Shown here in pieces: positions 14,221 to 32,000 of a stretch of DNA of 32,000 nucleotides. Within the stretch, counting starts at the first letter, position 1. Every line of letters begins with the position of its first letter. The DNA comes from Pseudodesulfovibrio piezophilus C1TLV30 (GTDB taxonomy: Bacteria > Desulfobacterota > Desulfovibrionia > Desulfovibrionales > Desulfovibrionaceae). A model generated the notes under the pieces. It was not told where the DNA came from. It did not search any database and worked only from the letters and a program-made list of their open reading frames with translations. The stretch is taken from the NCBI RefSeq assembly GCF_000341895.1, contig NC_020409.1, positions 1,320,001 to 1,352,000 on the forward strand. Direction: 5' to 3'. Both the position numbers and the translations under genes were made by a program.

Positions 14221-14264
14221 ATTTTTTTTCAATTAAAACTACAGCCATAGACAGGTGATATCGA

Positions 14265-16248: not shown

Positions 16249-16425
16249 ACTTCAGTTTCTCCTGTCACGATGTTGATTGATAAAGATCAAGCATCATAAC
16301 CTGGGTTTTCGGCTCAAGATAAAAACGGGCGAAAAAGGATACTCAAAGGATGAAAAAGCATAAGAAAGCAGCTTGACATGGTTCAAAGGCAAGGTCTGGC
16401 GAAAGGACGGCCGAATAAAATCTTG
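16249..16425 (-). promoter_or_regulatory. Conserved structured 5' leader / promoter region of the toxin genes (copy 1 of 3).
   Basis: It aligns with 20532..20705 and 31175..31350. It contains a hairpin just upstream of the RBS, a second element with alternative pairings (TTTTCGCCC / CCCGTTTTT / CGAAAA), and the invariant block CATGTCAAGCTGC (sense strand). Confidence 0.55.
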
Positions 16426-16660
16426 TGAGTGTTATTTCAAAAAGTTGCTGAGCTGTATTTTCGTCCCTACAAGGTGTTGGAAATGGCCTCGGGGGAAAAG
16501 AGGCATAAATGGATATCGAAAGGTATAAAAAAGCAGAGCACCTACTTATCATTGAAGACCGCTTAATTGCTTTACCAGTAAGATTTATAATTACAGTGAA
16601 ATAGCACCCTACTGGATATATTGCAGAATTCTGTTCTGACCTCATTCGTCTATCCACACG

Positions 16661-16752
16661 AAAAAGGCTTAGAAGGAAAACCTTCTAAGCCTTTATAGTC
16701 ATTGGTGGAGCTGGAGGGAATCGAACCCACGACCTCTTGAACGCAATTCAAG
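16661..16752 (-). repeat. tRNA-Ala-derived 3' half (nt 16703-16752, anticodon stem to CCA) plus its terminator hairpin; att-like direct repeat, copy 1.
   Basis: The sense strand reads CTTGA-ATTGCGT-TCAAG-AGGTC-GTGGG-TTCGATT-CCCTC-CAGCTCC-A-CCA, then GGCTTAGAAGG-TTTTC-CTTCTAAGCC-TTTTT. No D-arm or 5' acceptor strand lies upstream, so this is not a complete tRNA gene. Confidence 0.8.
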
Positions 16753-16775: not shown

Positions 16776-17186
16776 TTATTGAAGATAAGAATTCACCTTC
16801 TCTGGGCACATATCCATCGCTGCACCCAAAGCTTTGTCTGGCGTTAAAAATTCAACACTAAACCAATCCCCTCCAGTGGAGATCGCATGTTTGGGTAGCT
16901 CGAAACCACTTGATCCGATTCGGACAATGACAGTCTCATATGGACAGTTAAGCCGAACCTCTTTCAACTCGTTCATTTTCTCAATGAGCATCACACTCGT
17001 CACATAGATCGTTTCTTCCACTCCATCCGCCAAATGCCGCCTGCCCTTACCAACGTATATTATCTCCACGTTTTCGCATAGCACAACAGTTTCGCACGCG
17101 GATGACAGGTCAACAAAACCCACCATCCACATACATATAACAATCACGGCAATGCAGATTCTATTCACTCCACACCTCGTGCTCAA
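16776..17186 (-). CDS. Hypothetical secreted or membrane-anchored protein; candidate immunity for the upstream MuF-motif fragment.
   Basis: N-terminal hydrophobic segment ICIAVIVICMWMVGFV. It overlaps the end of 17161..17721 and I recognised no motifs in it. Confidence 0.45.
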   Translation of the reverse strand: MSTRCGVNRICIAVIVICMWMVGFVDLSSACETVVLCENVEIIYVGKGRRHLADGVEETIYVTSVMLIEKMNELKEVRLNCPYETVIVRIGSSGFELPKHAISTGGDWFSVEFLTPDKALGAAMDMCPEKVNSYLQ

Positions 17187-17721
17187 GAGTGTAGTTGATC
17201 ATAACGTTGTCCGAACCGGCAGCGACCATATGTATCCGCCAATGCACCGGCGGCTCCTGGCTTGCGTCCAACGAAGTTGAGTTGCTCGAAAACGACATAC
17301 ATGTAATCTGCTCAGAATGGTCGTGGTTAGTCGACAAATGGACACCAGAAGTAAGCCCGCCAGAGATGCCCTCAAAAAATATTTTAACATGATCTCCACC
17401 CGTAAAGGTCTCATATGCATGCCCCGTTAACGGCCCATTAATATATCGTTTCGGTCTCCGCAATGGATGTTTCTTTATCTCGCATTTACATTTAGGATGC
17501 GGACGTTCCGGTTCTTCTATAAACTCTTTTCCTTCCATAGCCTTACATGTTTCACATGCTCTCTCTTTAGGATGCACAGTCCAGTAGTAATTACCTTTTG
17601 GGTTTTTAGGTGGTTTTTGATTATTACTATCATGCTTCGCTCCAGCCTTTTTGAACTTCGCTAGGCTCTCTTGAGTTGAAATCCCCACCATACGTTTTGG
17701 CATCCCGTGTCCCGTGAACAA
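17161..17721 (-). CDS. Fragment of a MuF/SPP1-gp7-like polymorphic toxin: C-terminal MuF motif plus an unknown C-terminal domain of about 100 aa.
   Basis: ERACETCKAMEGKEFIEEPERPHPKCKCEI matches the end motif of phage head-morphogenesis (MuF/gp7) domains, (D/E)RxCxxCxxxxGKxF...PxHPxCxC. Only about 60 aa precede it. The listed start is a TTG; an ATG is at 17703. The frame opens only 24 codons upstream of 17721, so the MuF domain is truncated. Confidence 0.45.
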   Translation of the reverse strand: MFTGHGMPKRMVGISTQESLAKFKKAGAKHDSNNQKPPKNPKGNYYWTVHPKERACETCKAMEGKEFIEEPERPHPKCKCEIKKHPLRRPKRYINGPLTGHAYETFTGGDHVKIFFEGISGGLTSGVHLSTNHDHSEQITCMSFSSNSTSLDASQEPPVHWRIHMVAAGSDNVMINYTLEHEVWSE

Positions 17722-17994
17722 ACTGATCGCCTCAAATGTGTTGTACCCGCTTCTCTGCCATCTCTCTTCTCCTTTTGCCCACAGGGCTGTTTATGTGTTT
17801 GCGGGAAGCCTACCACTGGTTTTTCGGAGAAAATCATCGAAACACGACACTGTCGGTCAAATACACTCTGTCGCCCGTCAAACACTCGCTCTGGTTGCTG
17901 AAATACACATTAATTTCAGCATGTTCCTCTTGACAGCTTTTTGAGGAGCTTCGATTTTTGGTCAACAGAATTGTATATTTTTTTGTATATTCCA

Positions 17995-18089
17995 CGAAAA
18001 AAGGCTTAGAAGGAAAACCTTCTAAGCCTTTATAATCATTGGTGGAGCTGGAGGGAATCGAACCCACGACCTCTTGAATGCTATTCAAA
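17995..18089 (-). repeat. tRNA-Ala-derived 3' half (18040-18089) plus terminator hairpin; att-like direct repeat, copy 2.
   Basis: Same 50-nt block as copy 1, but the anticodon loop reads ATAGCAT. The flanking DNA on both sides is homologous to copy 3. Confidence 0.8.
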
Positions 18090-18231
18090 GTCATCGTTTG
18101 TAGTTGTTTGGAATACCTATCGTTTTGAGCGAGGAATATACATCGAGGGTATATTTGCGGGTAAAAGGTATATTTTTGTATATTCCTGGGAGGTATAGAA
18201 ATGGTATATCCGGCCTCCCAGCCGCCCTACT

Positions 18232-18426
18232 CTACAGGGCTAATTTGTTCTCGGACCGGAGACAATCGGATATCCAGACCTTGACCAAAGCCTGTCTGGA
18301 AAGAACGAACCTCCGGGCCTTCTCGTCCATCTCGTTGACCATCCACACCGGGAAACCCACGTTCACTCGCTTGATCTCGCGATCAAAGGTTTCAGAGCCA
18401 ACATTTCTGTTGTCCTTGGACTTCAT
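18232..18426 (-). CDS. CopG/ribbon-helix-helix antitoxin, BrnA-like.
   Basis: KRVNVGFPVWMVNEMDEKARRFVLSRQALVKVWISDCL follows the pattern I recall for antitoxins paired with BrnT (DUF497) toxins. A near-identical paralog lies at 26981..27184. Confidence 0.6.
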   Translation of the reverse strand: MKSKDNRNVGSETFDREIKRVNVGFPVWMVNEMDEKARRFVLSRQALVKVWISDCLRSENKLAL

Positions 18427-18560
18427 AACCCACCTCGCAAGTTTTCATAGAACGGACGACATAGACCAACCATGGCCTTAGTCGGAGAAATTATGACGGT
18501 ATCCCAGAGGTGGACCATGGCTAGGACTTTGTCCGTAGACACTGATATTCTTGATGAAAT
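18423..18560 (-). pseudogene. 5'-truncated remnant of a BrnT (DUF497)-like toxin gene.
   Basis: The frame ending in a TGA that overlaps the BrnA-like ATG reads ...STDKVLAMVHLWDTVIISPTKAMVGLCRPFYEN.... This resembles the BrnT C-terminus (L.VVHT.R.D.IRIISARKAT..E...Y). There is no N-terminal half and no start codon. Confidence 0.3.
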
Positions 18561-18602
18561 GGTATACTTTTTATATCAGAAGTACACCATTTTGAATTGA
18601 GC

Positions 18603-18636
18603 AAAAAAAAAGGGTGAGGTTACGACCTCACCCTTT
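18603..18636 (-). terminator. Rho-independent terminator downstream of immunity gene C.
   Basis: The sense strand reads AAAGGGTGAGG-TCGTAA-CCTCACCCTTTTTTTTT. Confidence 0.8.
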
Positions 18637-18640
18637 ATTG

Positions 18641-19099
18641 TTATTCGCTTGTTGGGATTTTCTGCCCTGTAGCCGTTTCATACTCCTCGACAGGAACCCA
18701 CCTAACTGTACCGCAGCAAACATCACCCTCAATGGTGCCGATAATCCACTTTTTGATCAGGCTTATTCTCTCTTTAACCAGATGCAACGACTCCATGGGA
18801 GCACAGAAACTCATGGAACTTCCATAATTCTCTCTACCTCCAGGGTAGAGTGCTTGGATGTGTAGTCGTCGGTACTCATCCCATGCCTTTTGTGAGGCAT
18901 TGAATTTTTCCAAAAACTCTGGCTGATCTGAATAGAGCTCATTGATTTCTGCAATCATGGAATTCATAGTTTTCATTGCTTCGGCGTGCGTCAACTGAGT
19001 ATTATCTACCATTTGTTTGTACTCATCTTGAGCACACACAGTTGAAGAGATGACCAGCACCCAAACAACGGCCACAACGCTACGAAAGCACCTATTCAT
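18641..19099 (-). CDS. Periplasmic lysozyme-inhibitor-like protein (LprI/DUF1311-like); candidate immunity to the GH24 toxin.
   Basis: Signal peptide MNRCFRSVVAVVWVLVISSTVCAQ. A helical domain carries the ...ASQKAWDEYRRLHIQALY... pattern typical of DUF1311. The ATG at 19099 overlaps the toxin stop (ATGAATAG). The ORF-track start at 19135 would add 12 aa ahead of the signal peptide. Confidence 0.65.
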   Translation of the reverse strand: MNRCFRSVVAVVWVLVISSTVCAQDEYKQMVDNTQLTHAEAMKTMNSMIAEINELYSDQPEFLEKFNASQKAWDEYRRLHIQALYPGGRENYGSSMSFCAPMESLHLVKERISLIKKWIIGTIEGDVCCGTVRWVPVEEYETATGQKIPTSE

Positions 19100-20531
19100 T
19101 TGTTTTCCCTTTTCTACGGAAACGGCCTGCTTCATTTTTCCTACGATTAATCAAACCGTTGTTCCGTACTTTCTTACCTGTTTTGAGATCAGTGGTATAA
19201 ACCCACCGCTCCATTTCTCCTGCAACGGAATCATAGTCTTTCTTGTTAAGTTTCTTCAACAAGGTTGATGTTTTGAAATTCCCTGGCCCAACATTATAGA
19301 CAAAGCTACTGAGAGCTTCAAACTCATTTTTACTAAGAGGAACTTTTACCATGTCTTTCACGGTTGACTCTGCACTCGCCATATCTTCATCAAAGAGCTG
19401 CATTGCTTCTTCTTCCGAAATCCCATTTCCATAATTTTCCTTGTCTTCCTGGGAACATGACCCATCGTGCAGTTTGTGTCCAAATCCAATGGTACAATGC
19501 CCTGAGGCATCATTATAAAGCTTCGATTCGAAACCTTCGAACTGCCGCACCTCTTTTCGAGCATCATCACTGGAAGAGAGATCTTTTAGTGATGACCGTT
19601 GCCATCCAGTCTGAGCACCTTCCGAAGGAGACTCAACAGCGTCCGATTTCTTTTCCTCAGGTTCCTTCTGACCAACTTGTTCTTTGACCTTCCCACGGTA
19701 CTGGTTGTCGTCATACACCTCATCCTGGCCTTCTGGAATCTGAAGCTCGGCACCCCCTGCTTCGTTCTCACCTCCAGCATCACTCACAGTTCCGGTGTCG
19801 TTCTCAGCATGCATCTCAGCATCTTCCATCCTGAAGCCCGGCTTGGCACCCAGCAACTCTTCGTTCCCGGACGCCCGCGCCTTCCCTACGTCAACACCGG
19901 CATATCCCAGGTACTTGTCGTACATGGCGTCGGCGTCCTTCTCGTCAAACTTGGCCTCGGACGTCACATATTTGTTGATGAGGTCGAAGGCCGCGTCGTC
20001 ATGCGCCTGGACGCCCTTGTCGTCCTTTGCGCCGAGCGCTCCCTGGGCGATACGCTGTAAGCCTTTGTCGAGCACGCTACGTGAACGCTCATTGAGCTTG
20101 TCCAAAGCAAACTGATGCCCCTGCTGCAAGAAACCCTTTTTGATCTTGGGTAAAGTTTCAGACAATGCCCCGTGCCGCTTTCCTCCCTTGGGGAAATCAG
20201 ACAGAATACCATGCTCATAGTCGTCGAACTGCTTTTTCAGATTGGTCGCATCTTTGGAAGGCTTATTTCCGGTGACATTCTTCTGCCAGTCGGCCAGCCC
20301 TTTACCAAAGAAGTCATGCGCTTCGTTTTCCTTCTCAACAATGGTATTGAGCCGATCCAGATCATGGTACGCATCACGCTTCTGTTGCTTCGGTTGCTGT
20401 CGTTGGTTTTGATTTTTGGTACCAATGCCCATTTCCAAAGCAATCTTGCGCTGGCCGCCGGTTGCGTTGTCGAGTCTCTTCTTCTGCTCGTCGGGGTCCA
20501 TGTTGATGAGTGATTTTCCGAAGTCAAACAT
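19092..20531 (-). CDS. Polymorphic toxin C: conserved MFDFGKSL N-terminal domain plus a C-terminal GH24 (T4/lambda-type) lysozyme.
   Basis: Residues 1 to about 250 align with the paralogs. The C-terminus VRQFEGFESKLYNDASGHCTIGFGHKL...EFEALSSFVYNVGPGNF...NGLINRRKNEA carries the GH24 catalytic E...D...T(IG.GH) pattern. Confidence 0.85.
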   Translation of the reverse strand: MFDFGKSLINMDPDEQKKRLDNATGGQRKIALEMGIGTKNQNQRQQPKQQKRDAYHDLDRLNTIVEKENEAHDFFGKGLADWQKNVTGNKPSKDATNLKKQFDDYEHGILSDFPKGGKRHGALSETLPKIKKGFLQQGHQFALDKLNERSRSVLDKGLQRIAQGALGAKDDKGVQAHDDAAFDLINKYVTSEAKFDEKDADAMYDKYLGYAGVDVGKARASGNEELLGAKPGFRMEDAEMHAENDTGTVSDAGGENEAGGAELQIPEGQDEVYDDNQYRGKVKEQVGQKEPEEKKSDAVESPSEGAQTGWQRSSLKDLSSSDDARKEVRQFEGFESKLYNDASGHCTIGFGHKLHDGSCSQEDKENYGNGISEEEAMQLFDEDMASAESTVKDMVKVPLSKNEFEALSSFVYNVGPGNFKTSTLLKKLNKKDYDSVAGEMERWVYTTDLKTGKKVRNNGLINRRKNEAGRFRRKGKTNE

Positions 20532-20705
20532 ACTTCAGTTCCTTTTGGGATGTCGATTGTTCAAAGATCAGACATCCTAACCCCGGTTTTCGCCCCAAAA
20601 TGAAAACGGGCGAGAAAGGGTACCGGAAGGATAAAAAAAGCATAAGAAAGCAACTTGACATGGTTTTGAAAAAGAGGATTTAAAAAACAGCGACCGAATA
20701 AACTT
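20532..20705 (-). promoter_or_regulatory. Conserved structured 5' leader / promoter region (copy 2 of 3).
   Basis: Sense-strand hairpin GGATGTC...GACATCC lies just before the AAGGA RBS. Alternative pairings are TTTCTCGCCC / CCCGTTTTC / GGGGCGAAAACCGGGG. The CATGTCAAGTTGC block is present. Confidence 0.55.
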
Positions 20706-21186
20706 GTGCTATTCCATCCATTTACAGAGCCGGCTTTTCGAAAACAACTCGATGTCGAAAATGGCCTCAGACAAAAAAAGGGGTATAAAAGGATATCAAA
20801 AGGTATAAAAAAGCAGTTCCTCTTTTCTTTGGCGCACTTATTCAGAAGGTATTTTCAATTGGTCTATTTTTACAGGTATTTACAAGACAGACAAAAAATC
20901 TTCTGAATTTTATTCTGAACGGCAGTACTTCCAGGTTGAGGCTGCCTCACGTATGCTGGCGATGCTATAGGTAACATTAACAATTGAAAAAACTAACGCC
21001 TGTTATGGCGACACCCTATGCCCTACCGATAACTGATAGTGATCATTCACTAAAAGAACTCACCAAGAGTGTTATATATACTCAAACATGTGTATTCAGA
21101 ATTAGGTAGACACCATACCCCTTAATCCAATTTCCATCCACCTGATATCATTTGTATATTCTCTTGTATATCCCACGAAAAAAAAG

Positions 21187-21792
21187 CTAAAAAGGAGAAC
21201 CTTCCAAGCCTTTAAAATTCTTGGTGGAGATAGCTGCGTTTCTAGCCTGACAGAAACCCATTCCCCTACTTCTCGGACCATCTATCAACCGCAACATGTC
21301 CCTCTCAGCGAACACGCAGCCATCAATGTCTTTGCCGCTATAGGGTGTATCGTTGAGTAACCCCGTAATCCATTGAATCTCACTACGAGTCCTCGGTAAA
21401 TGACCAAGCCGATTCTTCAACATGTACTCCATATTAAACTTCATGTCGTTCATCGTTCCAAGGACACTTCGACTATGGGTCTTGCCATATGAGAACGGGC
21501 CGAGCAGCAACTTGGCTTGAGCTATTTGCGCTGATGTTGCCCCAACACCCAGAAGAGCTATCTCGAAGTGCTCGATGAACACCTTGTCGAAGTTCATGAA
21601 GTCCTTCTTGACCAAGCCGGGCATAAACACGGCAAACCGGGTTTCATCGTTGACTAATAGCACGGACTTTCTACGAAAGAATCTGAAGATGTTGCCCTGC
21701 CAGCCTTGTAGCCCTCGTTGACTAGTAGGCTCTAGGATTTGTGCTGGCTTGATCTCGGCCAAAAGCTTTTGGGTACATCCGATGTAAGGCAT
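21187..21792 (-). CDS. Hypothetical protein. I cannot name the family.
   Basis: Long ORF with plausible composition (MPYIGCTQKLLAEIKPAQILEP...WQGNIFRFFRRKSVLLVNDETRFAVFMPGLVKKDF...). The N-terminal part is duplicated as a pseudogene at 12346..12533. The last ~12 codons run into a degenerate copy of the tRNA terminator / 3'-end repeat, so the C-terminus may be a fusion artefact. The ORF-track start at 21831 is 13 codons upstream. Confidence 0.55.
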   Translation of the reverse strand: MPYIGCTQKLLAEIKPAQILEPTSQRGLQGWQGNIFRFFRRKSVLLVNDETRFAVFMPGLVKKDFMNFDKVFIEHFEIALLGVGATSAQIAQAKLLLGPFSYGKTHSRSVLGTMNDMKFNMEYMLKNRLGHLPRTRSEIQWITGLLNDTPYSGKDIDGCVFAERDMLRLIDGPRSRGMGFCQARNAAISTKNFKGLEGSPF

Positions 21793-21902
21793 TGTTGATC
21801 TCATCTGGTTGGGTGGTAAAAGATTCCTCACTCAGAGAGCCACAATCGAACTCAGGATCAACTCAGATGGATATTCTCGGATGCTGTGGTGGGCTATTCA
21901 TT

Positions 21903-21972
21903 AAATAGGTATGGTGTACCTCTAATCCCTAACTCCAAACCCGAAATATAAGGGAGGTGTCCCCATAATTTT
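21903..21972. repeat. REP-like hairpin repeat units.
   Basis: AAATAGGTATGGTGTACCTCTAATCC and AAGGGAGGTGTCCCCATAATTTT are colinear with the 12640..12716 copy. Confidence 0.65.
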
Positions 21973-22182: not shown

Positions 22183-23430
22183 ATGAGCGTATATGAAATG
22201 AGGTTGAAGCACGATCAGAACGGTCGCATTGCGGAGAAAATTGAAACCATCAAAGGCAAGTCCATCAAGTGGACATACTCCTATGACAAAAAGGGGCGTC
22301 TGTTTGAGGCGCATTTGGACAATCGGCTGGTCTGCCAATGTCATTATGACAGGGGTGGCAGGCGACAGCAGGACTACTTCCCCAGGACCCATGGCAGTCA
22401 ACTGCGGAATTACCACTACCGCATGGACAACCGGCTGCAACAGGCCGGAAACAACGGCTACACCCATGACAAACAGGGATTCCGGTCCATCTGGAATAGC
22501 GGAGGCAAGTATACGCTCTATGAGTACAAGTCTGACTATCGGTTGCTGAAAGCGGAGAAACGGGAGACATGGGAAATCTTCGAGTTCTCGCACGACGACA
22601 ACGGCCAGCGGCAAGTGAAAACCTGCAACGGCGAGGTTGTTGAAGCCTACCAATGGCTCGATTTTATCCGGCTGGCCGGATTCCATGACGGCGAGATCGG
22701 CTACCGCTTCATTTATGAAGACAAAGAACGTACACCCTACGCCATGCAACGTGAAGACGGTGCCGTGGCCTACCTGTATTACGACCAGATCGGCTCCCTG
22801 CGGGTGGTTGCCCACAAGTCCGGCAACGTGATAAAGGAAGTCTTGTACGACCCCTTCGGTGGGATTATTGAGGACACCAACCCTGACTTCCGCATACCCA
22901 TCGGATTTGCTGGTGGATTGCATGACCGGGACTTGGGTTTCGTGAGATTCGGCTGGCGGGATTACGACACCTTCACCAGCCGATGGACTGCGCCAGACCC
23001 GATAGGTGATGCTGGAGGCGACCCGGATTGGTATGGGTACTGTCTCGATGATCCGGTGAATGGGATTGACCCGTTGGGATTGTTCGTTTTCGGCAAAACA
23101 GGACTGGGCATTTTCCCCGGAATAGGAACCGATGGTTCAACTGCGGACAAAAGGAACTATGAGTTGAAACATGAGCATGGTTTCTATGAAGATGGTACGG
23201 GAGACAATATCGGCCTGTTTGATGGCGGTCCAAAACGAACAGAGGACATCACAAAGTACAAACTTGATGAAACGCACTTTGACGACAAGCGCATGCGACA
23301 GGCCGAAAAGAGTCTTGATCCGGGAGAGTACAAGATGTGCAAGTGGGGCGGCAAATCTAATAATTGCCAGGATTATGCCGATGCTCTGCGCGAACGTTAT
23401 CGGTTTATACGCACTGCGGAAAAGCACTAA
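22183..23430 (+). CDS. Orphan Rhs/YD-repeat C-terminal fragment with a variable toxin tip (possibly LRAT-like / permuted NlpC-P60).
   Basis: YD-type repeats (YSYDKKGRL, YHYRMDNRL, GYTHDKQG, YEYKSDYRL). The Rhs core end motif is FAGGLHDRDLGFVRFGWRDYDTFTSRWTAPDPIGDAGGDPDWYGYCLDDPVNGIDPLGL. The tip of about 110 aa contains KHEHGFYEDG...NIGLF and NNCQDYADAL, which resemble the LRAT His-box and NCEHF Cys motif. At 415 aa it is far shorter than full Rhs proteins. GAAGGA RBS lies 6 nt upstream. Confidence 0.75.
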   Translation: MSVYEMRLKHDQNGRIAEKIETIKGKSIKWTYSYDKKGRLFEAHLDNRLVCQCHYDRGGRRQQDYFPRTHGSQLRNYHYRMDNRLQQAGNNGYTHDKQGFRSIWNSGGKYTLYEYKSDYRLLKAEKRETWEIFEFSHDDNGQRQVKTCNGEVVEAYQWLDFIRLAGFHDGEIGYRFIYEDKERTPYAMQREDGAVAYLYYDQIGSLRVVAHKSGNVIKEVLYDPFGGIIEDTNPDFRIPIGFAGGLHDRDLGFVRFGWRDYDTFTSRWTAPDPIGDAGGDPDWYGYCLDDPVNGIDPLGLFVFGKTGLGIFPGIGTDGSTADKRNYELKHEHGFYEDGTGDNIGLFDGGPKRTEDITKYKLDETHFDDKRMRQAEKSLDPGEYKMCKWGGKSNNCQDYADALRERYRFIRTAEKH

Positions 23431-23480
23431 CGCAATAATACAGCCGGGGGGCAGCTATCTCCCAGCTGACAAGGATGCCC

Positions 23481-24017
23481 ATGAAAGGTTTAAAAATCTT
23501 CCTTATCTGCATAGTTCTCGGTGGGGTGTTTGTTTATAACACTAACTGGTTTCAATCCTTTTTCTTGTACAACCGCTTTTTAGAGAGCATTGCCGATGTC
23601 CCGTTTGACGTGACAAAAAAAGGGGAGACGATTTCAATCCCGCTCAAGCATAAATTCAACACTTGCTATGAGCTGAATGTAGCAGTCCCTGATAAGAATA
23701 TATTTCATGACAACATCGTTGGCCCAGGGGCCCTGAGGTACCGCTTTGTTTCCGGAGGAAAAATACTGGCAAAGGGATTTACCTTTCCTGCAGTACGGCA
23801 ACACCTCACGCTTTATCGTGGAGTTACATTGATAACCATACTGGTATTCGACCTCCCTACCCCCGGCGCTGGGAATGATGTGTCACTGGAATTGACAGTA
23901 GATACCCCCATGGCCTTCCTCAATAAATATGCTGGCAAGATTAAATGCAACATTCGGCCTAACTACAGTGCAAAGGCTGGAGGCTGCTATAATGAAGAGC
24001 TCCGAATAGAATATTAG
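23481..24017 (+). CDS. Candidate Rhs immunity protein with an N-terminal TM helix or signal anchor.
   Basis: It lies immediately downstream of the Rhs tip. The N-terminus is MKGLKIFLICIVLGGVFVY. An AAGGA RBS precedes the second ATG; the ORF-track start is 23475. Confidence 0.55.
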   Translation: MKGLKIFLICIVLGGVFVYNTNWFQSFFLYNRFLESIADVPFDVTKKGETISIPLKHKFNTCYELNVAVPDKNIFHDNIVGPGALRYRFVSGGKILAKGFTFPAVRQHLTLYRGVTLITILVFDLPTPGAGNDVSLELTVDTPMAFLNKYAGKIKCNIRPNYSAKAGGCYNEELRIEY

Positions 24018-24165: not shown

Positions 24166-24320
24166 AATTATGGGGACTGGAATTATGGGGACAGCCACCT
24201 ATCTTTCTTCTTTTAATTAGGTGACTGTCTCCATAATTTGGAAATATAATTAGGAAGGTATCCCCTTAATTTTCTTAAACAATAGGAATTAGGGAGGTGT
24301 CCCCCTAATTCCCCCTAATT
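24166..24320. repeat. Cluster of REP-like palindromes.
   Basis: AATTATGGGGAC occurs twice in tandem. Next comes the palindrome AATTATGGGGACAGCCAC-N22-GTGACTGTCTCCATAATT, then AATTAGGAAGGTATCCCCTTAATT and AATTAGGGAGGTGTCCCCCTAATTCCCCCTAATT. The cluster is colinear with 29221..29340. Confidence 0.75.
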
Positions 24321-24778: not shown

Positions 24779-24832
24779 AATTATGGGGACACCTTCTTAA
24801 TTGTTGAATTAGGGAGGTGTCCCCATAATTTT
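24779..24832. repeat. REP-like inverted pair.
   Basis: AATTATGGGGACACC (24779-24793) and GGTGTCCCCATAATT (24816-24830) form a perfect 15-nt inverted repeat with a 22-nt spacer. Confidence 0.75.
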
Positions 24833-25154: not shown

Positions 25155-25616
25155 GTGACTAATTCAAGAAAATTCACATGGTTCTTTGCCTTAGGGATTG
25201 CCAGCATAGCGTCAGTTTATGCTACGGCTATCCATTTGTGGTTGGAGGATGCCTCTCACTCAGCCTCCGTAAGCGCGATCTTAGGCTCTCTGGTGCTGAG
25301 TTATGCCATCTGGCTTTGGCTGCATGAAAAACGAGGAGCGAAGGCGTTTAGTGGCGTTGTGCTCGGTGGTCTGTGCGGTTGTCTCGCCTTGATTCTTGGG
25401 CCGTTAGGCTTTGGGATAGAGGACCTTTTAATTGGTCCCAGCAAAGAGCTTGTGCTGTCAGAGTTGGTTTATATCCCCCTCATTAGCATTGCGTCTTTCC
25501 CTTTGATCTTTCTAGTTATGCATGGCTGGGCTGTAGTGTTGGCCGGTGTGCTGCTGGGGGGAGTCATAGAACAGCTGGAGCATCGTTCTTCAGAAAAGAA
25601 TGAGGGGAAGGGGTAG
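25155..25616 (+). CDS. Small polytopic membrane protein; candidate immunity (paralog by position and topology of 14265..14729).
   Basis: About 4 TM segments. It is convergent with orphan toxin E, has a homologous upstream sequence, and uses a GTG start. Confidence 0.55.
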   Translation: MTNSRKFTWFFALGIASIASVYATAIHLWLEDASHSASVSAILGSLVLSYAIWLWLHEKRGAKAFSGVVLGGLCGCLALILGPLGFGIEDLLIGPSKELVLSELVYIPLISIASFPLIFLVMHGWAVVLAGVLLGGVIEQLEHRSSEKNEGKG

Positions 25617-25635: not shown

Positions 25636-26613
25636 TTACTTCTTTTTTCTCGGAACATACGGATTAGTGTCCAATGCCTCCTCGGTTTCATCGTAAGCCT
25701 CCGGATTCGGTGCTGCGACTTTTTTGATGCCTGCCTTTACCGCGCCCCAGCTTTGCTCGCTGACCCCGGTCTCCTTCAGGACTTGCAGAGATTCCTTGAG
25801 CGCTGCCCCATTCGTCATATCCAATCTGTCAACGACCCCGACGATTTTTTCAATGTCCTCCTGGGGAAGATCTGCCAGACCGGCCTCCAAGTATGCTTCA
25901 GAGTGCGAATCATAAGCCTTCTCTTTCAATTCTTCAGGTTTTGATTCGTCCCACTCGCCGCTAAGAAGGCCTGCTTCCATCTTGAACTGCAACCGGTCTT
26001 TGGTTCGTTCCATCCATTCCTGGCCTTCCTTGGAAAGTTCAGGTTTAAGCTTGTCGAACCGCTTGACGTACTTATCGCCATACTCGCGATAGTAGTCAGG
26101 AGCCTCTTTGCCCGGATTGCGCTCCTCAAAGTCCTGGGCGCGTTTTTCATAGTATTCGGTTTTACCCAGGTCGTCCTTGATCCATGTGGGCTTGGCTCCC
26201 GACTTCTGCCTGTAATGCTCCTCAACATCCTTCACGCTATTTCCGGTTTGCTTTTCCCACTCACCGATGAGTCGAGCAGCTTTCGTTGGGGTGTCAGGCT
26301 TGGTGGCTTCAGCTTCCATCTCCCCGGCATGCTCTGCAGAAGACTTGGTAGGAGGCGCTTCTTGAACTTCTGTCGGCTCTCTGGCCGCCGCTTCATTTTG
26401 TTGCTGCGCCGGCTGCTCCTCTGGAGCGCCATCGGCGACTGTTGGAGCATCCGCAGGTTCTGCCTTTTCAACGCCTGCATACCTAAGGTACTTGTCGTAC
26501 ATGGCGTCGGCGTCCTTCTCGTCAAACTTGGCCTCGGACGTCACATATTTGTTGATGAGGTCGAAGGCCGCGTCATCGTGGGCCTTGACGCCATCCTCAA
26601 AAAAGACAACCAT
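25636..26613 (-). CDS. Orphan polymorphic-toxin cassette E: 5'-truncated gene with an intact unknown helical C-terminal domain.
   Basis: The family sequence starts only at ...GVKAHDDAAFDLINKYV (about residue 165 of full-length paralogs), after a junction-created MVVFFED. The C-terminal 250 aa are colinear with toxin B but uninterrupted. No leader and no Shine-Dalgarno are present. Confidence 0.7.
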   Translation of the reverse strand: MVVFFEDGVKAHDDAAFDLINKYVTSEAKFDEKDADAMYDKYLRYAGVEKAEPADAPTVADGAPEEQPAQQQNEAAAREPTEVQEAPPTKSSAEHAGEMEAEATKPDTPTKAARLIGEWEKQTGNSVKDVEEHYRQKSGAKPTWIKDDLGKTEYYEKRAQDFEERNPGKEAPDYYREYGDKYVKRFDKLKPELSKEGQEWMERTKDRLQFKMEAGLLSGEWDESKPEELKEKAYDSHSEAYLEAGLADLPQEDIEKIVGVVDRLDMTNGAALKESLQVLKETGVSEQSWGAVKAGIKKVAAPNPEAYDETEEALDTNPYVPRKKK

Positions 26614-26650
26614 AATTTTTTAAATTGCATAATCCAAAGTGATAATTCTA

Positions 26651-26679
26651 GAATTGGGGGGGGGACACCATACCTAATT
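26651..26679. repeat. REP-like unit in inverted orientation.
   Basis: GAATTGGGGGGGGGACACCATACCTAATT is the reverse complement of the AATTAGGTATGGTGTCCCC-type unit. A similar unit lies at 21100-21128. Confidence 0.6.
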
Positions 26680-26743
26680 CTCCCCCCTAAATATAATCCT
26701 CACCCACCCGATATCATTTGTATATTCTTTTGTATATTCCACG

Positions 26744-26836
26744 AAAAAAGGCTTAGAAGGAAAACCTTCTAAGCCTTTAAATTCATTGGTGGAGCTGGAG
26801 GGAATTGAACCCACGACCTCTTGAATGCCATTCAAA
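26744..26836 (-). repeat. tRNA-Ala(GGC)-derived 3' half (26787-26836) plus terminator hairpin; att-like direct repeat, copy 3.
   Basis: The sense strand reads TTTGA-ATGGCAT-TCAAG-AGGTC-GTGGG-TTCAATT-CCCTC-CAGCTCC-A-CCA. The loop AUGGCAU and the 3' end AGCUCCACCA match what I recall of E. coli tRNA-Ala(GGC). Confidence 0.8.
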
Positions 26837-26980
26837 TGCACAATCTGTAATTGTTTGGAATACTTAATCTTTATAAAGAGGAATATACATCGAGGGTATA
26901 TTTACGGGCATAAGGTATATTTTTTGTATATTCTTGGGAGGTATAGATATGGAACCTATTCTACCTCCCAAAGCCCTACT

Positions 26981-27184
26981 CTACAGGGCCAGCTTGTTTT
27001 CAGACCGGAGACAATCGGATATCCAGACCTTGACCAATGCCTGTCTGGAGATACCGAGCCGTCCGGCCCTCTCGTCCATTTCCTTGACCATCCATACCGG
27101 GAAATCAACATTCACTCGTTTGATCTCTCGCTTGTAGGTTTCAGAATCAGAGACGCTTCTCTCGAAGTTGTCCTTGGACTTCAT
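26981..27184 (-). CDS. CopG/RHH antitoxin, BrnA-like (paralog of 18232..18426).
   Basis: KRVNVDFPVWMVKEMDERAGRLGISRQALVKVWISDCLRSENKLAL. A frameshifted BrnT-like remnant (...IIPTRTKAVFVRPFYEN*) lies upstream at about 27195-27320. Confidence 0.6.
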   Translation of the reverse strand: MKSKDNFERSVSDSETYKREIKRVNVDFPVWMVKEMDERAGRLGISRQALVKVWISDCLRSENKLAL

Positions 27185-27365
27185 ACACCACCTCGCTAGT
27201 TTTCATAGAACGGACGAACAAAGACAGCCTTCGTCCTCGTTGGAATTATCATGACGATATCCAACGTGTAGGAAGATGGCTAGGACTTTGTCCGTAGACA
27301 CTGATATTCTTGATGAAATGGTATACTTTTTATATCAAAAGTACACCGTTTTGGATTGAGCAAAG

Positions 27366-27395
27366 AAAAAGGGTGAGGCCGTAACCTCACCCTTT
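27366..27395 (-). terminator. Rho-independent terminator downstream of immunity gene D.
   Basis: The sense strand reads AAAGGGTGAGG-TTACGG-CCTCACCCTTTTT. Confidence 0.75.
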
Positions 27396-27404
27396 GATCC
27401 GAAA

Positions 27405-27896
27405 TTACTGGCAGAGGTCTTCCAGTGCTTGGGGGTCATCATCCCCATAGCCTAAGTCTCTCGAAAATATCTTTTTGATTTCCGAGCAAGTATACTTCTT
27501 ATACTTTCCAAAGAAGCGTGTGTTGACCCCACATCCGGCAAAATGGGGAAGAGCATTTATGACTTCCAACTCATTATCACCGAATTCAATATGAACATAG
27601 GGGTCATCCACACGGTCCTCGAAAACATAGGTGGCTATTACACTGTTTCCTTTGAGTGTCCCTCTGGCAAGAAGCTTACAATCAGAGGGAACGGTCACGT
27701 CTTCCCGCTTGCCGGAGTGACCACCCCAAAGGCGGATGGTCACATCCCCATTATTCCCGTCTATGTAGACCAACGAATGCGCCCCACTACTGTGGACATT
27801 CAGGTAAATCCCCGAAACAGATTCGGCAGATGATGACCCTACTGAGGCAAGGATAAAGACAAAGACCAGTATCATTTTGGATGCAACATTTATCAT
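27405..27896 (-). CDS. Secreted candidate immunity protein (paralog of 12735..13220).
   Basis: Signal peptide MINVASKMILVFVFILASVGSSSAES. It shares the C-terminal block with 12735..13220. Its start lies 2 nt after the stop of the toxin D C-terminal ORF. Confidence 0.7.
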   Translation of the reverse strand: MINVASKMILVFVFILASVGSSSAESVSGIYLNVHSSGAHSLVYIDGNNGDVTIRLWGGHSGKREDVTVPSDCKLLARGTLKGNSVIATYVFEDRVDDPYVHIEFGDNELEVINALPHFAGCGVNTRFFGKYKKYTCSEIKKIFSRDLGYGDDDPQALEDLCQ

Positions 27897-27898
27897 CG

Positions 27899-29213
27899 TT
27901 ATTCTTTTCGACCCTTCTTCAATTTGTTAAGCGCATCAAGTTTTTCACGTTCGAGTCTTTTCTGAACGTTCTCTCTCACCTTCTTGGACGAACCTCCAAA
28001 GCGAGTTTTTCTTTCTTCGTAGATGGCTTCTATCAAGTCCGATTCAAACTCTTGACTCGAAGGATCGAATCGTTCCTCCTGTTTGAGTTTTTCAACAGCC
28101 TTCTTCACCACATTGGTGTCGGGGCCATGCTGCACTCCAGTCGACCATAACACTTGCTGTACTGTCTTTGAGTGCTTGTCAGCATCAAGACCAGATTCTT
28201 TTGCGCCATTTGCGACAGGCAAATAGTGACCGTCATAGATGAATTTATCTTGGCGACGTTCAAATTCCTCAGGATGCTTGTCTGCCATTTATCGCCACTT
28301 CTTGTCGAACTCAGCAGACCCCGGAGTCAGTCCTTCAAACTCGTTCTTCCAAGGAAAATCCTTAGATGTCACGAATTCTTTGACTCTACCTCCAACTTCC
28401 CCCTTGTGTCTACTTGTCATTTGATACTTGCCATACGATTTGCCACCCAAATCTCCTTCCCCAGAAGAAATGGCATGCGAACCGTCTTTGCCTGATTCAT
28501 ACTTCTCTGACAGTTCGCCAAGATCAGCGTGTGCATTGGGAGCCTCGCTCTGTGGTTTCTGTCTTTCTTTCTGCTGCTCCAGGTCTTTGACCTTCCCTCG
28601 ATACCGATGACCGTCATACATCTCGTCCTTCCCTTCCGGGATTTCAAGGTCAGCGTCTTCTGCCTTTTCCTCACCGCCAGCATCACTCGCTGTATCAGTG
28701 TCATTCTCAGCATACATCTCGGCATCTTTATCATCAAACTTGGCCTCGGACAGCACGTACTTGTTGATAAGATCGAAAGCGGCGTCATCATGGTTCTGGA
28801 TATCCTTTTCGTCTTTGGCACCGAGCGCACCTTTGGCAAGACGCTGCAAGCCCTTGTCGAGGACAGTACGGGAACGCTCGTTGAGTTTGTCCAGTGCAAA
28901 CTGATAGCCCTGTTGCAAAAAGCCTTTTTTGATGTCGGGCAAGGACTTGGAAAGAGCTTCATGCCGTTTACCACCCTTGGGTACTGTGGAAAGGACAGAA
29001 TGTTCATAGTCATCAAACTGCTTCTTGAGGTTGGTAGCATCTTTGGACGGCTGATTGCCGGTGACATTCTTCTGCCAGTCAACCAGCCCTTTACCAAAGA
29101 AGTCATGCGCTTCGTTTTCCTTCTCAACAATTGTATTGAGCCGATCCAGATCATGGTACGCGTCCCGCTTCTGTTGCTTCGGTTGCTGTCGTTGGTTTTG
29201 ATTTTTGATGCCT
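27899..29213 (-). pseudogene. Orphan polymorphic-toxin cassette D: 5'-truncated (lacks the first ~37 codons and the start codon), with an in-frame TAA inside the muramidase-like domain.
   Basis: The frame is open from the REP junction and reads GVGIKNQNQRQQPKQQKRDAYHDLDRLNTIVEKENEAHDFFGKGL.... It contains no ATG, GTG or TTG until 28942. A TAA at 28289-28291 (KKWR*MADKHPEEF) sits where cassette A reads DRWKEFSEKHPEEF. There is also an internal deletion of the YAGVD...KPGFKMED linker. Confidence 0.75.
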
Positions 29214-29220: not shown

Positions 29221-29425
29221 AATTATGGGGACAGTCACCCGCTGCGCAGAATTATGGGGACAGTCACTTATCTTTCTTCTTTTAATTAGGTGACTGTCCC
29301 CATAATTTGAAAATATAATTAGGGAGGTGTCCCCCTAATTCCTGGCCAATCGCGCCAAACCATCTCCTCTTGTTATGGAATAAAGAATAATTTAGTAAGG
29401 TGTCCCCGAAATTCCTCCCCGAAAT
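29221..29425. repeat. Cluster of REP-like palindromes at the truncation junction of cassette D.
   Basis: AATTATGGGGACAGTCAC occurs at 29221-29238 and 29250-29267. The perfect 18-nt inverted partner GTGACTGTCCCCATAATT is at 29290-29307, with a 22-nt spacer. AATTAGGGAGGTGTCCCCCTAATT is at 29317-29340, and a degenerate unit (AAGGTGTCCCCGAAATTCCTCCCCGAAATT) lies near 29396-29425. Confidence 0.8.
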
Positions 29426-29427
29426 TC

Positions 29428-29799
29428 TCAAAAAAAGTCGATGTATATTCCCAGAACATATGATTCATCCTCTTTTACAATCCGTCTGACTTCTCTGTTT
29501 GGGCCGATGAAAAGCCAAATCCGTGTCGTGCCTATCTCGCTCGGATTGTCAGCAGATGGAGCGGCCATAAACTCCCACTCACCCCATGGAGTGGAATGGA
29601 CATAAAAATCCCCTTTGATATCCCATGAACAGCAGGTTCGAGGCTGCCCCAATTTGATATGAAGCTGTGTACGAGACATCCCCTTTTTAATGCTATCCCA
29701 TTGTGTCGGATACCCAGCGTAAAGATAGAGAACACTGCATCCGACACTAAGGACCAGCCAGTAAAGTAGTATTTTCATAGTAAGTAATAGAGGTTTCAT
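29428..29799 (-). CDS. Candidate immunity protein (secreted, possibly a lipoprotein) for the NlpC/P60 amidase toxin.
   Basis: MKPLLLTMKILLYWLVLSVGCSV is a signal or lipobox-like sequence. An AGGAGG RBS lies 6 nt upstream of the ATG at 29799; the ORF-track start is 29829. The gene begins 50 nt downstream of the toxin F stop. Confidence 0.65.
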   Translation of the reverse strand: MKPLLLTMKILLYWLVLSVGCSVLYLYAGYPTQWDSIKKGMSRTQLHIKLGQPRTCCSWDIKGDFYVHSTPWGEWEFMAAPSADNPSEIGTTRIWLFIGPNREVRRIVKEDESYVLGIYIDFF

Positions 29800-29848
29800 G
29801 ATCGCCTCCTTGTATATTGAAATCACCACCTAACTGGCATTATGTCAA

Positions 29849-31174
29849 CTATCTTTGATTGCCGGTTTTTCCGACATATCGTCTGTATGTTATTTCCCCG
29901 GCTTGCCCCTCTCTGAATCCCCAGTCGTTTTCGACCACTTTATTTTTTATCGATGAAGCAGAGACCGTCTTACCGTCACCGCTAACGATGCCAACGTGCT
30001 CAGAACTTGCTGCAACGTCACCAGGTTTAGGATCATCAACAACAACCCATCCATCTAATTCCATATCTTTATTGGCCCAATCGGCCGCGACGGGCGGATA
30101 CATATCATTCGACAGAGGGTTATTTCCTTCATGGATCAAGGGAACAGGTGTCCCATTTTCTTTGAGAACATCATAAGCGAATTTGTTGCACTTAGTTTTG
30201 CCCCATCCAAAGTCATCTTTGCTTTTGAACTTAGCCCAAGCATCACTCCCTACATACTTTTTCGCTACATAGGCAGAATGTTCAGTGGACCATGCTTTTG
30301 GCTTCACATCATGATCAGCACCAGCCTCCTTCGTCCTTTGCTTGTTCTCAGATTTTTCCTCAGTGTTGCCTTTCCCGGCTATTTTGGGGCCCTGCGCCTC
30401 TGTCTCTTCCTTGCCACCAGCATCACTCACAGTGCCAGTGTCGTTCTCAGCATACATCTCAGCGTCTTCCATTTTGAAGCCCGGCTTGGCTCCCGGTACT
30501 TCTTCATTCTCAGACGCTCGTGCTTTCTCTAGGTCAACACCAGCATAACTCAGATATTTGTCGTACATGGCGTTTGCGTCATTCTCATCGAACTTGGCCT
30601 CGGACATCACGTACTTGTTGATAAGATCGAAAGCGGCATCATCATGAGCTTGTATGTCATTATCACCACTGGCACCAAGTGCGCCTTTAGCCAATCGCTG
30701 CAAGCCCTTGTCAAGCACGCTACGTGAACGCTCATTGAGCTTGTCCAAAGCAAACTGATGCCCCTGCTGCAAGAAACCCTTTTTGATCTTGGGTAAAGTT
30801 TCAGACAATGCCCCGTGCCGCTTTCCTCCCTTGGGAAGATCAGACAGAATGCCATGCTCATAGTCGTCGAACTGCTTTTTCAGATTGGTGGCATCTTTGG
30901 AGGGCTTATTCCCGGTGACATTCTTCTGCCAGTCGGCCAGCCCTTTACCAAAGAAGTCATGCGCTTCGTTTTCCTTCTCAACAATAGTATTGAGCCGATC
31001 CAAATCGTGATAAGCGTCCCGCTTCTGTTGCTTCGGTTGCTGTCGTTGGTTTTGATTTTTGATGCCGATGCCCACTTCCAAAGCCAATTTGCGCTGGCCA
31101 GGTGTTGCATTGTCGAGCATCTTCTTCTGCTCGTCAGGATCCATATTGAGAAGTGATTTTCCAAAATCAAACAT
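29849..31174 (-). CDS. Polymorphic toxin F: conserved MFDFGKSL N-terminal domain plus a C-terminal NlpC/P60-CHAP-type cysteine peptidase (probable peptidoglycan amidase).
   Basis: The N-terminal ~250 aa align with toxins B and C. The C-terminus has GWGKTKCNKFAYDVL (catalytic Cys context) and PGDVAASSEHVGIVSGDG (catalytic His context), in the canonical Cys-then-His order. Confidence 0.8.
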   Translation of the reverse strand: MFDFGKSLLNMDPDEQKKMLDNATPGQRKLALEVGIGIKNQNQRQQPKQQKRDAYHDLDRLNTIVEKENEAHDFFGKGLADWQKNVTGNKPSKDATNLKKQFDDYEHGILSDLPKGGKRHGALSETLPKIKKGFLQQGHQFALDKLNERSRSVLDKGLQRLAKGALGASGDNDIQAHDDAAFDLINKYVMSEAKFDENDANAMYDKYLSYAGVDLEKARASENEEVPGAKPGFKMEDAEMYAENDTGTVSDAGGKEETEAQGPKIAGKGNTEEKSENKQRTKEAGADHDVKPKAWSTEHSAYVAKKYVGSDAWAKFKSKDDFGWGKTKCNKFAYDVLKENGTPVPLIHEGNNPLSNDMYPPVAADWANKDMELDGWVVVDDPKPGDVAASSEHVGIVSGDGKTVSASSIKNKVVENDWGFREGQAGEITYRRYVGKTGNQR

Positions 31175-31350
31175 AGTTCAGTTCCTCCTATCAGGATGTA
31201 GTTTTTTCAAAGACCAGACATCCTAACCCCGGTTTTCGCCCCAGGATGAAAACGGGCGAAAAAGGGTACTAAAAGGACAAGAAAAGAATAACTTGGCAGC
31301 TTGACATGATTTTTAAGTAGAGGTTTGGTAAAACGGCTACCGAATAAAAT
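31175..31350 (-). promoter_or_regulatory. Conserved structured 5' leader / promoter region (copy 3 of 3).
   Basis: Sense-strand hairpin AGGATGT-N18-ACATCCT lies directly before the TAGGAGGA RBS. TTTCGCCC / GGGCGAAA and CCCGTTTTC / GAAAACCGGGG are mutually exclusive pairings. The CATGTCAAGCTGC block is present. Confidence 0.55.
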
Positions 31351-31414
31351 TTTGTAGCAACTATTCCAAAGAAGTGGGTTCACTTTATCGGACCACTGAG
31401 CGGCGAATTTAAGG

Positions 31415-32000
31415 TGGACAGTTTTACGTGTTACGCCGCCTTGTGGGTCCATCCCAGAGGGGGTACCCCCTCTGGGATGGGACCGCTTTGATATATCTCC
31501 ATCGGCTTGCGTCCGTCAAAGGTCTTATGAGGACGCCGATTATTGTAGAAGTTAAACCACCAGGCCAAGGCACTCCGCAGCTCACTTCCTGTCTCCAGTT
31601 CCCGCAAGTAGACACATTCGTATTTCAAAGACTTCCAGAGTCGTTCGATCATGACGTTATCCATCCAGCGTCCTCGGCCATCCATTGAAATGCGGATGCC
31701 AGCATCCCGCAGAGTCTTTGTGAATTCATAGCTGGTGAACTGGCTCCCCTGGTCTGTGTTGAATATCTCAGGTTCTCCATAACGGTTGATCGCATCCTCC
31801 AAAGCTACGACACAAAAGTCGGCCTCCATCGTATTCGACAAACGCCACGACAATACTGCCCGGCTATGCCAATCCATGATTGCCACGAGATACAAGAAGC
31901 CTCGTTTCATCGGAATGTAAGTAATGTCGGTACACCAAACTTGATTTGGCTTTGTGATCTTCATGTTCCGCAACAAATACGGATATATTTTGTGCTGTGG
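31415..32000 (-). mobile_element. IS3-family insertion sequence, partial: 3' part of the OrfB DDE transposase plus a terminal inverted repeat.
   Basis: ORF 31431..31976 and beyond has an rve integrase core ([10 protein letters not shown]...[13 protein letters not shown]...FNTDQGSQFTS...NVMIERLWKSLKYE...YNNRRPH). A TGGACAG... terminus at about 31415 lies 16 nt beyond the stop. The element runs off the right window edge. Confidence 0.85.

Follow-up and report, generated by a model that had tools for sequence, protein, structure and literature searches.

The stretch of DNA considered here (the window) comprises 32,000 nucleotides (nt) of the genome of Pseudodesulfovibrio piezophilus C1TLV30 (contig NC_020409.1, positions 1,320,001 to 1,352,000). 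It contains six paralogous copies of one gene family, all located on the minus strand, from ~12.6 kb to past 31.4 kb of the window. This is a putative polymorphic toxin family found only in Pseudodesulfovibrio, whose proteins consist of a helical N-terminal region, an acidic linker and an interchangeable tip. Three copies (F, C and B) are full-length and three (D, A and E) are 5'-truncated (Table 1). The truncated copies, or orphan cassettes, are probably displaced or deleted relics retained mainly for immunity, and tip exchange between the copies is probably an evolutionary process rather than a ready switch. This reading draws on the anatomy of the copies, the lesions found in them, the mosaic structure of their conserved region, the chimeric composition of E and the presence of orphan immunity genes in related loci.

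According to the proposed mechanism, D, E and A would once have been full-length and would have lost the leader, the start codon and the first 36 to ~172 codons. The loss could have occurred when a new tip-immunity module recombined in upstream by homology-facilitated illegitimate recombination (displacement, as comparison of the loci suggests) or by simple deletion. The toxin parts would subsequently decay and the immunity genes would stay intact, so that the present value of the cassettes would be mainly protection against kin still firing those toxins. Between direct-repeat copies, RecA-type gene conversion and unequal crossing-over in or next to the conserved region could homogenise patches, swap tips and delete intervening cassettes over evolutionary time; such events would be sporadic and not programmed.

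Full-length genes and truncated cassettes

The N-terminal region (~215 amino acids, aa) is 87-91% identical in protein among F, C and B. In the family as a whole, one such region (75-91% aa identity) is combined with tips of the CHAP amidase, GH24 lysozyme, PF21277 (VgrG3-C-like muramidase) and helical E types, and the junction of the conserved and variable parts reads AMYDKYLxYAGV. Similarity among the repeated copies greatly exceeds chance expectation, with blastn E-values ranging between 1e-16 and 0. An all-helical structure is predicted for the N-terminal region (predicted local distance difference test, pLDDT, 77). Its model has no fold match in the PDB at E<=0.001, and nothing in Pfam, PHROGs or NCBIfam corresponds to the region. 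A profile run against 1.84 billion representative proteins returned 29 hits only, essentially all of the same narrow family. Exact-protein look-ups of E, the transmembrane (TM) open reading frame (ORF) beside E, immC (two starts) and immF returned no record, and literature searches found neither this family nor a type VI secretion system (T6SS) described in Pseudodesulfovibrio. The family proteins have no signal peptide.

The tip of F matches the CHAP family of Pfam at E=1.2e-4, which is under the gathering score, and the tips of D and A match PF21277 with E-values of 5e-23 and 2e-20. The B tip has no Pfam match; for the E tip there is no match in Pfam, PHROGs or NCBIfam, and its model (pLDDT 64) gives no fold match at E<=0.001. 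The E-type tip has 25 homologues, all of them in Pseudodesulfovibrio records or metagenome contigs. The peptidoglycan-hydrolase nature of the tips and the periplasmic or membrane character of the partner ORFs suggest that the family proteins could act as interbacterial toxins.

All three full-length genes have good ribosome-binding sites (that of F, AGGAGG, is strong) and a common leader of 180-300 nt. A leader of ~150 nt stands 5' of every full-length copy in six genomes and is conserved more strongly than the coding sequence. It was seen in the window and in L002-L006 and L014, where L001-L017 denote the related loci or contigs compared with the window, several of them from low-coverage metagenome-assembled genomes (MAGs). 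RNAalifold, applied to 10 loci, predicts two leader hairpins just 5' of the Shine-Dalgarno sequence (SD), with compensatory changes in 9 pairs. No Rfam family matches the leader, which may be regarded as a candidate cis-regulatory RNA.

The conserved leader is missing from D, E and A. Strong intrinsic terminators are located after immD and immC, and a second hairpin (26745-26780) lies 3' of the tmRNA (transfer-messenger RNA) fragment upstream of E. Since the orphans have neither leader nor SD, E lies behind terminators and none retains an N-terminal start, D, E and A are, as far as the sequence allows judgement, probably silent, that is, not expressed as deliverable toxins. Alternatively, the truncated cassettes could be independent genes translated from internal starts and acting without the N-terminal region, intracellularly or by other export, which is highly improbable. 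E is an intact ATG-initiated ORF called by gene callers, the same start is found on L011 (P0035), and a weak promoter-like match is located upstream of it at 26717-26690. However, the ATG of E has no SD, promoter-like matches are no commoner than in shuffled sequence, and the ORFs of D and A begin at arbitrary internal codons and are broken. The truncation codons differ in every case examined (29, 37, 64, 147, 173 and 195), which is a pattern of accidents and not of a conserved shorter isoform. Further 5'-truncated copies are present in L008, L010 and L015. A copy in L006 (12288-12854) is internally deleted, its leader and first 38 codons being fused straight into the last part of an E-type tip.

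A previous sequence-only reading of this locus had placed the starts of D, A and E at codons 38, 150 and 165, within a few codons of the positions given in Table 1, and the order it described, F followed by D and E and B followed by A, is correct. Cassettes D and A are not intact. A TAA at 28289-28291 breaks D halfway through PF21277; the residue at this position is Glu in L002, Asp in L005 and Glu (GAA) in L012. D also has an in-frame deletion of 33 codons near the junction of the conserved and variable parts. A carries three lesions, namely an in-frame TAA within 14185-14199 and an 11-nt deletion within 14159-14178, the latter in the conserved part, and a frameshift near 13635 in the tip. 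Inactivating mutations look unusually common in this family across genomes.

The full-length gene B is annotated as two pieces, 15187-16248 (353 aa) and 14768-15154 (128 aa). The second piece is not an immunity gene but the 3' part of the B toxin: in the distant homologues P0074 and P0075 a single ORF holds both halves, and what separates B from E is the single-base deletion listed in Table 1. A separate immunity gene was rejected on these grounds for 14768-15154 and for similar ORFs of 120-134 aa elsewhere. The B orthologue in L006 is a continuous ORF of 464 aa.

The tip of E is of the same type as that of B and is not a different toxin. E is a chimera, in which the 125-nt conserved part follows C (93%, with an exact run of 89 nt) and the tip follows B. 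From the boundary of the conserved and variable parts, E and B are 98.3% identical over 522 nt, the first 214 nt being identical; beyond this tract, identity falls to 81%, then to 67%, and then none is left. In this genome only E could now donate an intact tip; in the sister strain represented by L012, D could do so as well.

Recombination among the copies and possible tip switching

The conserved 5' parts of the orphans, earlier described as near-identical to the others, are 77-83% identical to those of the neighbouring full-length genes, and only local tracts reach high values. Identity by blastn is 82.5% over 491 nt for D and F, 79% over 334 nt for A and F, 77% over 203 nt for A and B, and 82% over 116 nt for E and F. 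In 60-nt windows, F and C are 93-100% identical at nt 92-451, with an exact run of 122 nt, and then 72%; past nt 451, where this drop occurs, C and B are 95-97% identical. D is 92-95% identical to F, C and B at nt 152-271 and ~62% at nt 331-391. The longest exact runs common to an orphan and a full-length gene are 53 and 49 nt for F and D, 89 nt for C and E, and 26 nt for B and A; F and E have no exact run of at least 17 nt. Sawyer-type permutation of variable sites yields significant tracts for F-C, C-B and C-E (P<=6e-4) and for F-D (P=0.001), and A has no significant conversion tract with any copy. The conserved region is a mosaic of conversion tracts (permutation P<=0.001). An inversion switch of the shufflon kind was rejected, since the copies are without exception direct repeats and an invertase is lacking.

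Comparison with relatives reveals two apparently recombinant arrangements. L014, a 36-kb contig of another Pseudodesulfovibrio, contains tandem full-length genes (9575-10906 and 13119-14504) with identical N-terminal regions and different tips, both having the same in-frame TAG at codon 129. The shared TAG combined with different tips requires either that tips were swapped or that a conversion ended at the boundary of the conserved and variable parts. P0029 and P0030, initially listed as orphans truncated at codon 143, were rejected as such, being full-length genes with an in-frame TAG.

The second arrangement is represented by L011 (JGI sample 3300009849). This contig is 100% identical to the upstream flank and junction of E up to the shared run and then switches to the C tip, immC and the C downstream module, with 26 further mismatches over ~2.08 kb. 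Such a structure is the expected product of direct-repeat recombination between E (26468-26592) and C (19891-20015) with deletion of 6.5 kb. The same sample holds L013, which matches the window at D with 100% identity, and L011 therefore comes from a very close relative. L011 is not the predicted joining of the F leader to a D or E tip, such as switching would produce. Metagenome scans for exact patterns (a D-specific 5' stretch and the E junction), which bear on the predicted F-D and F-E junctions, found nothing in a collection evidently without relevant samples.

The sequence-only reading had proposed recombination within the conserved part as a means of replacing the expressed tip. Recombination there is borne out by the mosaic tracts, the chimeric E, L011 and L014, but a role of the orphans as a ready tip-switching reservoir is not supported. 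A silent reservoir maintained for adaptive toxin switching, in which homologous recombination swaps the expressed tip for an orphan tip, is considered unlikely, although it has a basis in the data. The copies are direct repeats with common conserved sequence, both L014 and E give evidence of swapped tips, and there is an experimental precedent in Salmonella (PMC3967940).

Some observations weigh against the interpretation of the orphans as relics and are in line with a reservoir. E is intact. The F-D exact runs and significant tract make recombination between F and D mechanistically possible. The D tip has a ratio of non-synonymous to synonymous substitution rates (dN/dS) of 0.18-0.20 versus full-length orthologues, the same as that of the orthologues among themselves; it thus appears to be under purifying selection indistinguishable from theirs, which would fit a maintained reservoir too. 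The D nonsense codon is absent from L012, a sister-strain contig 99.86% identical to the D region, so D was a usable cassette until very recently. To the same side of the balance belong doubts about the comparative material: some frameshifts in relatives may be errors of low-coverage MAGs, and L011 could have arisen as a chimera during assembly, through the shared run of 89 nt, although the C-like part is diverged, which speaks against a simple joining of the two copies of this genome.

Switching in Salmonella Typhimurium operates between rhs-main and rhs-orphan at 95% identity over 522 bp and requires prior duplication sparing the main immunity gene (PMC3967940). By comparison, identity here is 77-83%, and the overlap of E with full-length genes is only ~125 nt, without an exact run of at least 17 nt in common with F. 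A simple crossover of F with D or E would delete immF and leave the cell sensitive to its siblings. With homology shorter and more diverged and immF lost on crossover, switching would be possible in principle for F-D, unlikely for F-E or B-A, and at present without product in the case of D and A. Both of these cassettes are inactivated, as is the full-length B, and A is devoid of conversion tracts. Moreover, the sole recombinant found, L011, makes a full-length gene an orphan and activates none, and toxin-less orphan immunity genes in relatives indicate that the toxin part is dispensable. The reading of the orphans as relics kept mainly for immunity is therefore preferred.

Candidate immunity genes, probable displacement and unit boundaries

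Each orphan had been described as followed by its immunity gene. This holds for D and A, which are followed by intact paralogous ORFs, and not for E, whose candidate partner is convergent on the plus strand. Immunity function of all partner ORFs is putative, being suggested by the co-occurrence of tips and partners. The immF, immD and immA ORFs have no match in Pfam, PHROGs or NCBIfam. Weak homologues of immF follow CHAP-type tips in L001, L002, L014 and L015. Relatives of immD are located next to D-type tips (91-96% aa identity in L002 and L005, 66% in L017), so that this pairing is seen in four genomes, and the dN/dS of immD is 0.12-0.15, as of a gene under constraint. Lysozyme tips are followed by an LprI-like ORF.

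The ORF beside E matches nothing in Pfam or NCBIfam. Its homologues are convergent after E-type tips in the window (14265-14729), in L004 (11608-12066) and in L006 (11488-11943); a further one lies among E-type tip fragments in L017 (5481-5939). In L015, an E-type tip with a convergent ORF of ~155 aa precedes a different orphan, truncated at codon 195; this ORF has no detectable similarity to the TM family.

Genes resembling immA, immD and immC occur without a toxin in the relatives L014, L015 and L001, L014 having relatives of both immD and immA, the latter as an 81%-identical copy. Orphan immunity genes without toxin favour displacement with immunity retention (PMC5361080). The locus of D allows a more direct comparison, as D-type tips sit on full-length genes in relatives. 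In L002, the D tip and immD (88-91% aa identity) belong to a full-length gene preceded by the 680-nt module described below and by the leader. Instead of this stretch, the window contains immF and palindromes together with another allele of the CHAP type, the join lying at family codon 37, which supports the displacement model for D.

The inter-unit modules after immD and immC are 83-91% identical, and in L001 and L002 full-length units are set apart by the same module. The ORF 26981-27184 belongs to the BrnA antitoxin family (NCBIfam NF047399, with 64 bits, which exceeds the cutoff); an intact brnT partner is not seen upstream of it. The tmRNA 3' fragment at 26787-26835 gives a partial Rfam match with E=5.5e-5 (~1e-5 for the fragments), and the exact pattern occurs three times versus 0 expected. 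The third fragment is located upstream of the B leader, and a degenerate copy (~21190-21229) precedes the C leader. Among the relatives, the fragment follows units in L001, L002, L005, L011, L012 and L013 and opens the contig L015. Rfam at gathering thresholds detects no RNA gene, and no intact tmRNA was found in the window or in any locus by ARAGORN or Rfam. A second kind of orphan is situated between two tmRNA fragments: an ORF of 186 aa at 17161-17721 (-), unrelated to the family and preceded by the second inter-unit module, which weakly resembles the phage Mu F domain at its Cys-rich end and is overlapped by a 136-aa ORF at 16776-17186 (-). This pair is kept in L001 at 10219-10951 (64% and 43% aa identity).

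The tmRNA fragments look like attachment (att) scars of integrative elements targeting ssrA. Only one integrase was found, a tyrosine integrase which in L005 lies with a DnaB-like helicase just upstream of a full-length D-type unit; none is present among the window ORFs scanned. The fragments at unit boundaries and this integrase make stacked ssrA integration plausible but unproven in the growth of the array. It is possible, though doubtful, that the array was built mainly by site-specific integration of small ssrA-targeting elements, each unit (leader, toxin, immunity gene, brnA and tmRNA 3' fragment) being the end of one element and the units being stacked by successive integrations, later deletions of the backbones and of gene 5' ends having produced the orphans; such an origin would be compatible with the orphans being relics. 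Unit borders upstream of E, C, the MuF-like orphan and B are formed by three tmRNA fragments and the degenerate copy, units of relatives are likewise followed by this fragment, a BrnA antitoxin gene adjoins each fragment, and the E junction lies ~195 nt after one. The integrase and helicase of L005 agree with this account as well. On the other hand, neither an integrase nor an intact tmRNA gene is present in the window or in most loci, the junctions of D and A are not beside tmRNA fragments, the module could spread by ordinary duplication or unequal crossing-over, and in L004 and L006 single units that lack the full module are found elsewhere, at unrelated places of the chromosome.

A more specific version can be proposed tentatively. 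The units could represent cargo at the attR end of small ssrA-targeting elements composed of integrase, helicase, toxin, immunity gene, brnA and tmRNA 3' repeat; integron-like stacking of these elements could be followed by homologous recombination in the N-terminal region, which would prune and reshuffle the units. The N-terminal region would then mark a delivery route new to Desulfovibrionia.

Palindromic repeats abut the truncation point of D. The 24-nt palindrome AATTAGGGGGACACCTCCCTAATT occurs in 7 copies versus 0 expected, only inside the island, at sites 12691-12714, 21947-21970, 24248-24310, 24779-24830 and 29317-29340. The 58-nt hairpin, likewise confined to the island, is located at 29250-29307 and at 24181-24238 (repeat cluster 24180-24313). 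The palindromes are often found at cassette ends and at the D truncation point and are absent from the loci of relatives; they resemble repetitive extragenic palindromic (REP) sequences or miniature inverted-repeat transposable elements (MITE).

Table 1. Toxin genes, candidate immunity genes and boundary elements of the island (positions in the window).
Feature	Position	Strand	Description	Basis
F	29849-31174	-	full-length, 441 aa; helical N-terminal region of ~215 aa, acidic linker, CHAP-like tip	ORF
C	19092-20531	-	full-length, 479 aa; GH24 phage-lysozyme tip	Pfam PF00959, E=1.9e-39
B	14768-16248	-	full-length gene with E-type tip, split by 1-nt deletion at 15237/8	
D	27899-29212	-	5'-truncated; homology from 29212 (F codon 37); VgrG3-like_C (PF21277) tip	
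A	13207-14220	-	5'-truncated; homology from 14220 (F codon ~147); PF21277-type tip; degenerate	
E	25636-26613	-	intact 325-aa ORF; family homology from 26592 (~codon 173); C-like conserved part, B-type tip	
immF	29428-29829	-	candidate immunity gene for F, 133 aa, hydrophobic N-terminus	ORF
immD	27405-27896	-	intact candidate immunity gene for D-type tip, 163 aa, signal-peptide-like N-terminus	
immA	12735-13220	-	intact candidate immunity gene, 161 aa; paralogue of immD (38% identical), signal-peptide-like N-terminus	
immC	18641-19135	-	LprI-like candidate immunity gene after C	Pfam PF07007, E=8.6e-5
ORF beside E	25155-25616	+	convergent, four-TM-like, about 152-153 aa; candidate immunity gene for E-type tips	
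ORF after B	14265-14729	+	convergent multi-TM candidate immunity gene, family of 25155-25616	22% identity, E=1e-8 (small database); position
Leader/promoter region	31175-31354, 20532-20816, 16249-16536	-	conserved; only 5' of full-length copies F, C, B	blastn and alignment
Inter-unit module 1	26718-27395	-	~680 nt: terminator 27368-27395, BrnA-family ORF 26981-27184, tmRNA 3' fragment 26787-26835 and hairpin	
Inter-unit module 2	17971-18636	-	terminator 18609-18636, small ORF 18232-18426, tmRNA 3' fragment 18040-18088	
tmRNA 3' fragments	26787-26835, 18040-18088, 16703-16751	-	49 nt each, with terminator hairpin	
Palindromic repeats	29221-29340	.	24-nt hairpin, 58-nt hairpin, extra half-site; abut D truncation point	

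Relation to known systems, neighbourhood and significance

The family has the general features of polymorphic toxins, namely alternative tips, a partner gene linked to the tip, and promoterless 5'-truncated copies downstream. Orphan arrays of Rhs and CdiA likewise combine a conserved 5' region, variable tips, adjacent immunity genes, truncated copies downstream in the same orientation, and recombination (PMC3967940). They differ from the array described here, in which the N-terminal region is a novel helical domain, homology extends over 125-490 nt at 77-83%, several full-length paralogues each have a promoter in place of a single main gene, and most orphans are inactivated. Membership in either family is not indicated by Pfam: none of the six copies has an RHS/YD match or a match to haemagglutinin/FHA or PT-VENN domains (E<=0.1), and no cdiB-like gene is found among the window ORFs scanned.

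In Neisseria, MafB toxins have a signal peptide and an N-terminal DUF1020 domain, and strings of promoterless MafB-CT/MafI cassettes are present in several islands. The MafB proteins resemble the present family in being restricted to a genus and in having a conserved N-terminal domain and promoterless 3' cassettes with immunity genes; here, in contrast, there is no signal peptide, the N-terminus is unrelated and the tips are mainly peptidoglycan hydrolases.

Several tips and partners are typical of T6SS effectors (PF21277, named T6SS_VgrG3-like_C, GH24, CHAP and LprI-like), which is suggestive and not diagnostic. No vgrG, Hcp, PAAR, MIX, FIX or adaptor domain was found among the window ORFs scanned, and the flanks of L001-L010 contain no ORF of VgrG-like size, as judged by ORF size only. 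In the T6SS arrays of Vibrio cholerae, incoming effector-immunity modules push old remnants and immunity genes downstream (PMC5361080). Displaced 3' remnants, mosaic clusters formed by homologous recombination and orphan immunity genes are common to those arrays and the present one (PMC5361080). Unlike them, the island has no VgrG, Hcp or adaptor nearby, and its units are bounded by tmRNA 3' fragments, with an integrase in one relative; the Vibrio study looked for a link to integrases and found none (PMC5361080). Homologous recombination of tandem paralogues also drives gain, loss and chimerism in the toxin/immunity loci of type VII secretion (T7SS) in Firmicutes (PMC9484751). Recombination of tandem paralogues is the point of likeness, whereas those loci belong to Firmicutes and the T7SS and are mainly arrays of immunity genes (PMC9484751).

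Ordinary chromosome makes up the left third of the window (27-4028 on the plus strand, 5356-8893 on the minus strand and 10148-12189 on the plus strand), with a nonribosomal peptide synthetase module (C-A-T-TE), a MacB-type ABC exporter, and NapC/NirT and multihaem cytochrome genes; the island begins just after it. At its left edge, 12343-12692 is an 85%-identical partial duplicate of the 5' part and upstream flank (21599-21951) of a DUF6933 gene, which is located upstream of C at 21187-21831 (-) (E=1.6e-38). At the right edge, directly upstream of the F leader, lies a fragment of an IS3-type (rve) transposase (31431-31976, -). An orphan Rhs C-terminal fragment is situated in the middle of the island (22183-23430, +); it consists of the end of the YD-shell (Pfam TEN_YD-shell, E=3e-20) and a tip, is followed by a 180-aa ORF (23475-24017, +), and implies that the genome has a main rhs gene at another site.

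Two features of the array are modestly new, namely an N-terminal region without detectable relatives outside Pseudodesulfovibrio, a genus of anaerobic sulfate reducers, and unit boundaries formed by a tmRNA fragment and brnA. The tmRNA fragments and the integrase in one relative hint at integrase-assisted assembly of effector-immunity arrays. The island could also serve as a worked example of how trails of beheaded cassettes are better read as decay with retention of immunity than as a ready arsenal.

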